DNA of 64,000 nucleotides from Escherichia coli. GTDB taxonomy: Bacteria; Pseudomonadota; Gammaproteobacteria; Enterobacterales; Enterobacteriaceae. The position numbers were made by a program, and so were the translations under genes. Location: NCBI RefSeq assembly GCF_030384885.1, contig NZ_CP128613.1; one strand, written 5' to 3'. The notes under the pieces are model-generated. The model saw only the letters and a list, made by a program, of their open reading frames with translations, did not search any database and had not been told where the DNA came from. Below, in pieces: positions 28,726 through 49,456 of this stretch (positions are counted from its first letter, which is position 1; each line of letters starts with the position of its first letter).

Positions 28726-29286
28726 ATGAACAAGTTTTTATTTGCCGCTGTATTGTTCGTCAGTGGCCTGCTCGTTGGCTGTAATCAACTCACCCAATAC
28801 ACCATCACCGAACAAGAAATTAACCAGTCGCTTGCGAAACATAATAATTTCTCAAAAGATATCGGTTTACCCGGCGTGGCTGACGCCCATATTGTTCTGA
28901 CAAACCTGACCAGCCAAATTGGTCGCGAAGAGCCGAATAAGGTTACCCTAACCGGAGACGCCAATCTGGACATGAACTCCCTGTTCGGTAGCCAGAAAGC
29001 GACCATGAAACTGAAGCTGAAAGCGCTGCCTGTGTTTGATAAAGAAAAAGGCGCGATCTTCCTGAAAGAGATGGAAGTAGTCGATGCGACGGTACAACCG
29101 GAAAAAATGCAAACGGTGATGCAAACGTTGCTTCCCTATTTGAACCAGGCATTACGCAATTACTTTAACCAGCAACCTGCTTATGTCCTGCGCGAAGATG
29201 GCAGTAAGGGCGAAGCAATGGCGAAGAAACTGGCGAAAGGTATTGAAGTGAAGCCTGGTGAAATTGTCATTCCGTTTACTGATTAA
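28726..29286 (+). CDS. yceB: lipoprotein YceB (DUF1439)
   Basis: ORF 28525..29286; start placed at MNKFLFAAVLFVSGLLVGC (lipobox LVGC) to give 186 aa. Confidence 0.88.
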   Translation: MNKFLFAAVLFVSGLLVGCNQLTQYTITEQEINQSLAKHNNFSKDIGLPGVADAHIVLTNLTSQIGREEPNKVTLTGDANLDMNSLFGSQKATMKLKLKALPVFDKEKGAIFLKEMEVVDATVQPEKMQTVMQTLLPYLNQALRNYFNQQPAYVLREDGSKGEAMAKKLAKGIEVKPGEIVIPFTD

Positions 29287-29287
29287 T

Positions 29288-29318
29288 CACGAGGGCGCAT
29301 TTGCGCCCTTTATTTTTC
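29288..29318 (+). terminator. rho-independent terminator after yceB
   Basis: GAGGGCGCA-tt-TGCGCCCTT hairpin followed by TATTTTTC. Confidence 0.75.
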
Positions 29319-29324
29319 GTGCAA

Positions 29325-29391
29325 AGGAAAACGTTTCCGCTTATCCTTTGTGTCCGGCAAAAACATCCCTTCAGCCGGAGCATAGAGATTA
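29325..29391 (+). promoter_or_regulatory. pyrC: pyrC control region: PurR-type operator palindrome and leader hairpin near the SD
   Basis: Palindrome AGGAAAACGTTTCCGC at 29325..29340; downstream TCCGGC-N15-GCCGGA inverted repeat just 5' of the GGAG/ATG. Confidence 0.65.
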
Positions 29392-30438
29392 ATGACTGCA
29401 CCATCCCAGGTATTAAAGATCCGCCGCCCAGACGACTGGCACCTTCACCTCCGCGATGGCGACATGTTAAAAACTGTCGTGCCTTATACCAGCGAAATAT
29501 ATGGACGGGCTATCGTAATGCCCAATCTGGCTCCGCCCGTGACAACCGTTGAGGCTGCCGTGGCATATCGCCAGCGTATTCTCGACGCCGTACCTGCCGG
29601 GCACGATTTCACCCCGTTGATGACCTGTTATTTAACAGATTCGCTGGACCCTAATGAGCTGGAACGTGGATTTAACGAAGGCGTGTTCACCGCTGCAAAA
29701 CTTTACCCCGCAAACGCAACCACTAACTCCAGCCACGGCGTGACGTCGGTTGATGAAATCATGCCGGTACTTGAGCGCATGGAAAAAATCGGTATGCCGC
29801 TACTGGTGCATGGTGAAGTGACACATGCAGATATCGACATTTTTGATCGTGAGGCGCGCTTTATAGAAAGCGTAATGGAACCGCTTCGCCAGCGCCTGAC
29901 CGCGCTGAAAGTCGTTTTTGAGCACATCACCACCAAAGAAGCTGCCGACTATGTCCGTGACGGAAATGAACGTCTGGCGGCCACCATCACTCCTCAGCAT
30001 CTGATGTTTAACCGTAACCATATGCTGGTTGGTGGCGTGCGTCCACACCTGTATTGTCTACCCATCCTCAAACGCAATATTCACCAACAGGCACTGCGTG
30101 AACTGGTCGCCAGCGGTTTTAATCGCGTATTCCTCGGTACGGATTCTGCGCCGCATGCACGTCATCGCAAAGAGAGCAGCTGCGGCTGCGCGGGCTGCTT
30201 CTACGCCCCAACCGCGCTGGGCAGTTACGCTACCGTCTTTGAAGAGATGAATGCTCTGCAGCACTTTGAAGCATTCTGTTCTGTAAACGGCCCACAGTAC
30301 TATGGCTTGCCGGTCAACGACACATTCATCGAACTAGTCCGCGAAGAGCAACAGGTTGCTGAAAGCATCGCATTGACTGATGACACACTGGTGCCATTCC
30401 TCGCCGGGGAAACGGTACGCTGGTCCGTTAAACAATAA
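29392..30438 (+). CDS. pyrC: dihydroorotase
   Basis: 348-aa [30 protein letters not shown]... with HxH metal-binding motif. Confidence 0.97.
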
Positions 30439-35420: not shown

Positions 35421-36341
35421 ATGACGAATCTACCCAAGTTCTCCACCGCACTGCTTCATCCGCGTTATTGGTTAACCTGGTTGGGTATTGGCGTACTTTG
35501 GTTAGTCGTGCAATTGCCCTACCCGGTTATCTACCGCCTCGGTTGTGGATTAGGAAAACTGGCGTTACGTTTTATGAAACGACGCGCAAAAATTGTGCAT
35601 CGCAACCTGGAACTGTGCTTCCCGGAAATGAGCGAACAAGAACGCCGTGAAATGGTGGTGAAGAATTTCGAATCTGTTGGTATGGGGCTGATGGAAACCG
35701 GCATGGCGTGGTTCTGGCCAGACCGCCGGATCGCCCGCTGGACGGAAGTGATCGGCATGGAACACATTCGTGACGTGCAGGCGCAACAACGCGGCATCCT
35801 GTTAGTTGGCATCCATTTTCTGACTCTGGAGCTGGGTGCGCGGCAATTTGGTATGCAGGAACCCGGGATTGGCGTTTACCGCCCGAACGATAACCCACTG
35901 ATTGACTGGCTACAAACCTGGGGCCGTTTGCGCTCAAATAAATCAATGCTCGATCGCAAAGATTTAAAAGGCATGATTAAAGCCCTGAAAAAAGGCGAAG
36001 TGGTCTGGTACGCACCGGATCATGATTACGGCCCGCGCTCAAGCGTTTTCGTCCCGTTGTTTGCCGTTGAGCAGGCTGCGACCACAACCGGAACCTGGAT
36101 GCTGGCACGGATGTCCGGCGCATGTCTGGTGCCCTTCGTTCCACGCCGTAAGCCAGATGGCAAAGGGTATCAGTTGATTATGCTACCGCCAGAGTGTTCT
36201 CCGCCGCTGGATGATGCCGAAACCACCGCCGCATGGATGAACAAAGTGGTCGAAAAATGCATCATGATGGCACCAGAGCAGTATATGTGGTTGCACCGTC
36301 GCTTTAAAACACGTCCGGAAGGCGTTCCTTCACGCTATTAA
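35421..36341 (+). CDS. lpxL: lipid A biosynthesis lauroyltransferase
   Basis: ORF 35358..36341; start placed at [24 protein letters not shown] to give 306 aa. Confidence 0.9.

Positions 36342-48805: not shown

Positions 48806-49456
<651 letters not shown>

Follow-up and report, generated by a model that had tools for sequence, protein, structure and literature searches.

The 64,000-nucleotide stretch of DNA analysed here (the window, in which position 1 is the first base) almost certainly carries the native Escherichia coli pyrC promoter and leader, in which two controls are stacked: a pyrimidine switch that combines start-site choice with a leader hairpin, and an operator for the PurR repressor. 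The pyrC element is already known, having been described since about 1990-1994 and catalogued in Rfam, and it holds no new biology for E. coli. The use of the start sites, their sensitivity to nucleotides and the binding of PurR at pyrC are parts of this account that are known only from the literature.

In the mechanism that we favour, RNA polymerase positioned by the -10 hexamer TATCCT would initiate at C 29354/29355 or at G 29356/29357, with the choice following the CTP/GTP ratio. In an RNA started at C, the sequence CCGGC at the extreme 5' end would pair with GCCGG (29374-29378), and the resulting helix would bury the first two G residues of GGAG (29377-29380) and block translation. An RNA started at G, missing one or both of the C residues, would fail to keep the Shine-Dalgarno sequence within the helix and would be translated. 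Purine control would be exerted by PurR, which on its 16-bp box at 29325-29340 would occlude the promoter; PurR repression at pyrC is about two-fold. According to reviews, a high CTP/GTP ratio leads to a C start, to two extra C residues and to a 5' hairpin that sequesters the ribosome binding site, while a low ratio leads to a G start and a translated RNA. A review credits nucleotide-sensitive start-site selection at pyrC to Wilson et al. 1992 and to Sorensen et al. 1993.

Location of the element and identity of the gene

The window is a segment of the E. coli chromosome with the gene order yceB-pyrC-dinI, and the neighbours of pyrC are grxB, yceB and dinI. A 401-bp query taken around the element had 100% matches in several complete E. 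coli genomes, in which it is annotated as spanning yceB and pyrC, and it was found in 5425 of 5426 complete E. coli genomes. The pyrC coding sequence (29392-30438, plus strand) begins with the ATG at 29392 and encodes a dihydroorotase of 348 amino acids. This assignment is based on the list of open reading frames, on RefSeq annotation and on the equivalog model TIGR00856 (dihydroorotase), which the pyrC product matched with 551.8 bits against a cut-off of 293 (5e-166). RefSeq gives no regulatory feature annotation in the region upstream of pyrC.

The upstream gene yceB ends at 29286 and is followed by an intrinsic terminator (29291-29318, plus strand), which was recognised both by a terminator scan and by its inverted repeat. 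Its stem at 29291-29310 has 8 pairs, 6 of them G-C, and a loop of 4, and it is followed by a T run, given by the scan as the tail TATTTTTCGT. The yceB terminator adjoins and delimits the pyrC promoter and lies outside the control element proper. It stops one or two bases ahead of the inferred pyrC -35 hexamer, with terminator and promoter falling within about 30 bp.

Promoter and start-site cluster

The -10 hexamer, or Pribnow box, is TATCCT at 29342-29347 on the plus strand, with which the Rfam PyrC_leader model begins (model positions 1-6); in orthologues it reads TATCCT, TATGCT or TATTCT. The inferred -35 hexamer, GTGCAA (29319-29324, plus strand), matches TTGACA at 3 of 6 positions and is separated from the -10 by a 17-bp spacer. 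Its TGCA core is kept in all of the Enterobacterales orthologues displayed in the alignment. The pyrC promoter was not called by a consensus sigma-70 scan of 29000-29700, matching at 7 of 12 positions, and the -35 is therefore inferred from its spacing to the -10 and from conservation.

Downstream of the -10 lies the start cluster T6 C7 C8 G9 G10, numbered from the end of the -10 hexamer and located at 29353-29357 on the plus strand. The cluster itself is read from the sequence, while the mechanism assigned to it comes from the literature, and the order C-C-G-G at positions 7-10 after the -10 is conserved in orthologues. A review places the pyrC start sites at a C 6-7 nt after the Pribnow box and at a G further downstream. 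An additional 10-nt inverted repeat, CAAAGGAAAA/TTATCCTTTG (29322-29331 and 29341-29350), is 90% complementary and brackets the PurR box and the -10. This repeat across the promoter is not kept in other genera, and it was set aside as probably a product of chance.

The leader hairpin and the Shine-Dalgarno sequence

The leader contains the inverted repeat TCCGGC and GCCGGA, whose two halves show 100% complementarity and are separated by 15 nt. The sequence-only reading of this DNA that preceded our analysis had placed the repeat immediately 5' of the ribosome binding site; the repeat is exact, at 29353-29358 and 29374-29379, but its 3' arm overlaps GGAG (29377-29380) instead of lying 5' of it. 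The stem proper consists of 5 pairs, in which CCGGC at 29354-29358 pairs with GCCGG at 29374-29378, and a sixth pair, with the T at 29353, requires that this base be transcribed. The loop of 15 nt, AAAAACATCCCTTCA (29359-29373), differs in both length and sequence in other genera. The 3' arm, GCCGG(A) at 29374-29379, thus takes in the first bases of the Shine-Dalgarno sequence, and all of these leader features are on the plus strand.

The Shine-Dalgarno sequence GGAG is situated 11 nt before the AUG and was assigned from the conservation of GCCGGAG in orthologues. A second purine-rich sequence, AGAG (29384-29387), is nearer to the start codon and is an insertion present only in E. coli and E. 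albertii. Judged from this comparison, GGAG, rather than the AGAG nearer the AUG, is the conserved Shine-Dalgarno sequence. Liu and Turnbough are said to have numbered the start sites C7 and G9, and to have shown that the GGAG embedded in the hairpin is the functional Shine-Dalgarno sequence. A review cites a paper in which the Shine-Dalgarno sequence of pyrC was identified.

In order to compare the leader with known RNA families we used Rfam 15, in which the curated family RF02372, PyrC_leader, has a gathering score of 50 bits. The RF02372 covariance model matched 29342-29391 on the plus strand with 68.7 bits (E=3.1e-11) over model positions 1-50 of 50. The consensus structure of this family is the 5-pair stem CCGGC/GCCGG, and the match ends at 29391, directly upstream of the pyrC ATG and on the same strand. 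No other Rfam family, riboswitch or attenuator families included, gave a meaningful score at the leader. The sequence-only reading had named the downstream gene as pyrC, with its known pyrimidine control by start site and hairpin, and in this it was right, as TIGR00856, RF02372, the reviews and the folds described below all agree.

The plus strand of the window contains 485 inverted repeats that have perfect 6-bp arms and loops of 3-20 nt, 88 of them G+C-rich, and the folding z-score of the leader against dinucleotide shuffles is only -1.9 to -2.2. Perfect 8-bp palindromes, of the kind found at the centre of the PurR-type box, occur 211 times on the same strand. Each taken alone, the hairpin and the palindrome are statistically unremarkable. 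The case for function rests on position, family models and conservation, since neither feature is rare by itself.

Folding of the leader from alternative start sites

RNAs were folded from each start position, and for each we recorded the energy of the hairpin alone and the probabilities of pairing between the 5' arm and the Shine-Dalgarno sequence. For a start at U 29353 the predicted hairpin energy is -9.7 kcal/mol and the Shine-Dalgarno G residues (29377, 29378) are paired. A start at C 29354 gives -8.1 kcal/mol, with these G residues paired to the 5' arm at P = 1.00 and 0.99, and a start at C 29355 gives -5.0 kcal/mol, with P = 0.96 and 0. When the RNA begins at G 29356 (-3.0 kcal/mol) a 3-pair remnant forms in which GGAG is unpaired (P = 0), and when it begins at G 29357 the hairpin energy is +1.2 kcal/mol and the Shine-Dalgarno G residues are free (P = 0). 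The C and G start positions adjoin each other 6-10 nt after the -10, and only the C starts are predicted to hold the helix over the Shine-Dalgarno sequence. The folds reproduce the published switch: at the Shine-Dalgarno G residues, pairing with the 5' arm has P = 0.99-1.00 if the RNA starts at 29354 and P = 0 if it starts at 29356-29357.

It had been suggested from the sequence alone that transcripts starting at 29347-29352 be folded, in the expectation that the Shine-Dalgarno sequence would be sequestered only in the longer forms. A switch of this type is seen, at 29354/29355 versus 29356/29357, but the starts that had been suggested all keep the full hairpin. For all starts from 29345 to 29353 the hairpin is in fact always present, with a pair probability of 1.00. 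The stable hairpin over the Shine-Dalgarno sequence that was looked for in a plausible transcript is the one at -8.1 kcal/mol in the RNA started at C 29354.

With 15-70 nt of coding sequence in the folded RNA, the Shine-Dalgarno sequence of the short RNAs is also predicted at equilibrium to pair weakly with downstream bases, and the computed cost of opening the ribosome binding site in C- and G-started RNAs differs by only about 1-3 kcal/mol. An accessibility measure with long 3' context was replaced, as it was confounded by this weak predicted pairing between the Shine-Dalgarno and coding sequences. The thermodynamic model is qualitatively consistent with the start-site mechanism and is not quantitatively decisive.

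An RNA that starts upstream of 29353, for example by read-through from yceB, is predicted to form a larger hairpin of 13 pairs (29346-29358 with 29374-29387; -19.7 kcal/mol), the extra pairs of which use the AGAG insertion of E. coli and E. albertii. In such a read-through RNA, translation of pyrC might be silenced by the extended helix over the Shine-Dalgarno sequence.

The PurR-type operator

Inside the pyrC promoter the palindrome GGAAAACGTTTCC at 29326-29338 consists of 5-bp arms, GGAAA and TTTCC, around ACG. It lies inside a 16-bp PurR-type box, AGGAAAACGTTTCCGC (29325-29340), which was assigned from the PurR matrix and from its conserved position, and a perfect 8-bp palindrome, AAACGTTT, forms the core of the box and is centred, like the box, on the CG at 29332/29333. 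The spacer that separates the inferred -35 from the -10 has 17 bases, of which 16 belong to the box; this location is typical of PurR operators, and the operator is found between the -35 and -10 in 44% of PurR-regulated promoters.

The PurR matrix was made from the 28 published sites in Table 1 of PMC3159470, among which pyrC is not included, and both strands of the window were scanned with it. The box at 29325 scored 17.0 bits and ranked 1 of 127,970 positions in the 64-kb window, with 0.13 such matches expected by chance. The sites from which the matrix was made score 11.8-24.9 bits with a median of 20.1, so the pyrC box is under the median, and it agrees with the PurR consensus ACGNAAACGTTTGCNT at 11 of 14 specified positions, the three differences including a change of G to C at position 13. 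The near-perfect, PurR-box-like palindrome that the sequence-only reading had seen in the promoter is therefore present, in the spacer between the -35 and -10, and it scores as a PurR box. The same reading had presented the leader as control without a protein regulator, which applies to the pyrimidine branch, but the palindrome is an operator for the protein PurR and serves purine control.

The next-best matrix match in the window is at 36037-36052 on the minus strand, in lpxL (15.0 bits), and two adjacent matches of 14.8 and 14.2 bits are found at 49415-49446 on the minus strand, inside the 3' end of csgD. The lpxL and csgD matches are intragenic and probably due to chance.

A box of at least 16.4 bits that ends 1 nt before the -10 is the best-scoring match in 15 of 16 Enterobacteriaceae loci. 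The sixteenth locus (L012) is degenerate at the box position (ACGATAACGTTTCCCC) and has its best match, of 14.5 bits, offset by 6 nt. The PurR box is absent from the loci of Erwiniaceae, Yersiniaceae, Pectobacteriaceae, Hafniaceae and Morganellaceae that were examined, where the best match is at most 7.1 bits. Outside these families, PurR-type boxes are found upstream of pyrC in Vibrio hannami (L080; GCGTAAACGTTTGCGT, 21.3 bits) and in Photobacterium piscicola (L062; CAGCAAACGATTGCTT, 15.2 bits).

Conservation of the predicted switch in the Enterobacterales

Of 5424 complete E. coli genomes, 5359 match the 90 bp at 29311-29400 with an identity of 99% or more, K-12 derivatives among them, and over the surrounding 401 bp the identity among E. 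coli genomes is mostly 95-99%. A broader comparison drew on 80 loci, each from a different species and each encoding a PyrC relative, and about 33 Enterobacterales loci among them were examined. All of the Enterobacteriaceae loci, together with those of Erwinia, Rosenbergiella and Edwardsiella, have a TATNCT -10 hexamer that is followed by CCGGC at positions 7-11, and in all of them GCCGGAG precedes the start codon by 6-11 nt. The loop between these conserved arms ranges from 15 to 77 nt and is unalignable across genera, and the stem is invariant in most loci, which makes it uninformative for covariation. In nearly all loci that keep the arms, an RNA started at C7 is predicted to pair its 5' end with the Shine-Dalgarno sequence at 0.85 or above, against 0 for an RNA started at G9, and the predicted pairing is lost between C8 and G9. 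The exception is two Rosenbergiella loci, in which pairing of 0.33 and 0.68 is predicted at G9.

Several other genera show altered forms of the helix. In Photorhabdus (L024, L025) both arms, CCGGC and GCCGG, are kept, with the 3' arm just 3' of the Shine-Dalgarno sequence (GGAGCCGG); these arms lie about 60-130 nt before position 701 of the two loci and provide an independent geometry for the same pairing. In Yersinia (L017, L022) CCGC pairs with GCGG at the Shine-Dalgarno sequence, one pair having been lost on both sides, and in Pectobacterium and Brenneria the helix contains one C·C mismatch. In the loci of Rahnella (L015), Hafnia (L021) and Acerihabitans (L027), no helix joining the 5' end to the Shine-Dalgarno sequence was evident. 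The start region of Yersinia, Rahnella, Hafnia and Acerihabitans reads CCCCGCC(G), in which a C-C-C-C-G start cluster is conserved.

Of 20 orthologous loci scored with RF02372, only 3 reached the gathering score, namely Escherichia albertii and two Citrobacter. Since orthologous leaders with long loops score 34-45 bits against the model, the family as curated under-calls the element.

Alternative explanations

Two other roles for the hairpin were considered. It could be mainly an mRNA-stability element, protecting the transcript from RNase E or RppH, and not a block to ribosomes. Stabilising hairpins act at the very 5' end of an mRNA, and the stem is located at the very 5' end of C-started RNAs. 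A review also notes that the longer, less-translated transcript has altered decay. However, the 3' arm remains linked to the Shine-Dalgarno sequence with a loop as long as 77 nt and after relocation of the arm, a link for which a pure stability hairpin has no need, and the form with the hairpin is the poorly expressed one in the literature, which is the opposite of expression driven by stabilisation. We consider it very unlikely that stability is the main function. As a G+C-rich stem in the 5' leader of a nucleotide-biosynthesis gene, the hairpin might also be thought of as a transcription attenuator, a terminator or part of a ligand-binding riboswitch, particularly as the pyr genes pyrBI and pyrE use attenuation, according to a review. 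No T run follows the pyrC stem, though (sequence GCATAGAGATTA), and the terminator scan made no call at 29353-29385. PyrC_leader is the only Rfam match, which speaks against a riboswitch, and because the loop is not conserved we see no ligand pocket in it. There is next to no chance that the hairpin works as an attenuator, a terminator or part of a riboswitch, and we retain the view that it governs access to the Shine-Dalgarno sequence.

The palindrome, in turn, could be bound by a regulator other than PurR, either another member of the LacI/GalR family or an unrelated factor, or it could be a chance palindrome in the spacer. The three departures from 14 specified consensus positions, G to C at position 13 among them, would be in keeping with this, as would the abundance of perfect 8-bp palindromes in the window, and binding at pyrC was not detected in a genome-wide PurR ChIP-chip study (PMC3159470). 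Against it, the same source lists pyrC as a known PurR target that has been characterised in vitro and by mutation. The box also has the top PurR matrix score in 64 kb at a chance expectation well below one, and the Enterobacteriaceae loci keep it in the same place, some with variants nearer to the consensus, such as ACGAAAACGTTTCCGC. The strong boxes upstream of pyrC in Vibrio and Photobacterium are likewise not what a chance palindrome or another regulator would lead one to expect. It is thus highly improbable that the palindrome is anything other than a PurR operator.

Relationship to known systems

The element is the same as the pyrC leader of E. coli K-12 and Salmonella (RF02372): the stem, the -10 and the C-C-G-G cluster are all equal, without any substantive difference, and K-12-type genomes, J53 for instance, carry the identical 90 bp. 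The pyrD gene of E. coli and Salmonella resembles pyrC in that, according to the literature, the start choice made under the CTP/GTP ratio decides whether a 5' hairpin forms over the ribosome binding site, and the pyrD promoter also has a PurR box, reported as CGGAAAACGTTTGCGT. It differs from pyrC in gene and sequence, and it lies outside the window. The PurR operators of the pur regulon are, like the pyrC box, 16-bp imperfect palindromes with a central CG, but the pyrC box is unlike the typical pur operator in its score (17.0 versus a median of 20.1 bits) and in having C for G at position 13. The pyrBI, codBA and upp genes, which are controlled by UTP-sensitive reiterative transcription, share with pyrC the sensing of nucleoside triphosphates at initiation without a dedicated regulatory protein. 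In those genes, however, control relies on slippage along T or A tracts where transcription begins, whereas pyrC lacks a tract of this kind and its output takes the form of a hairpin that blocks translation.

This is a classic form of control, in which RNA polymerase, by selecting a start site, itself gauges the nucleotide pools, and a hairpin of five pairs converts the selection into translation that is either on or off. We would suggest, with more doubt than confidence, that the switch is plastic in evolution and has a wider distribution than the curated family shows, that Rahnella, Hafnia and Acerihabitans may use a different read-out, and that the helix formed in yceB read-through RNA could tie translation of pyrC strictly to its own promoter. 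The comparative loci collected here are a small by-product of the analysis, and they could help to broaden the Rfam family.
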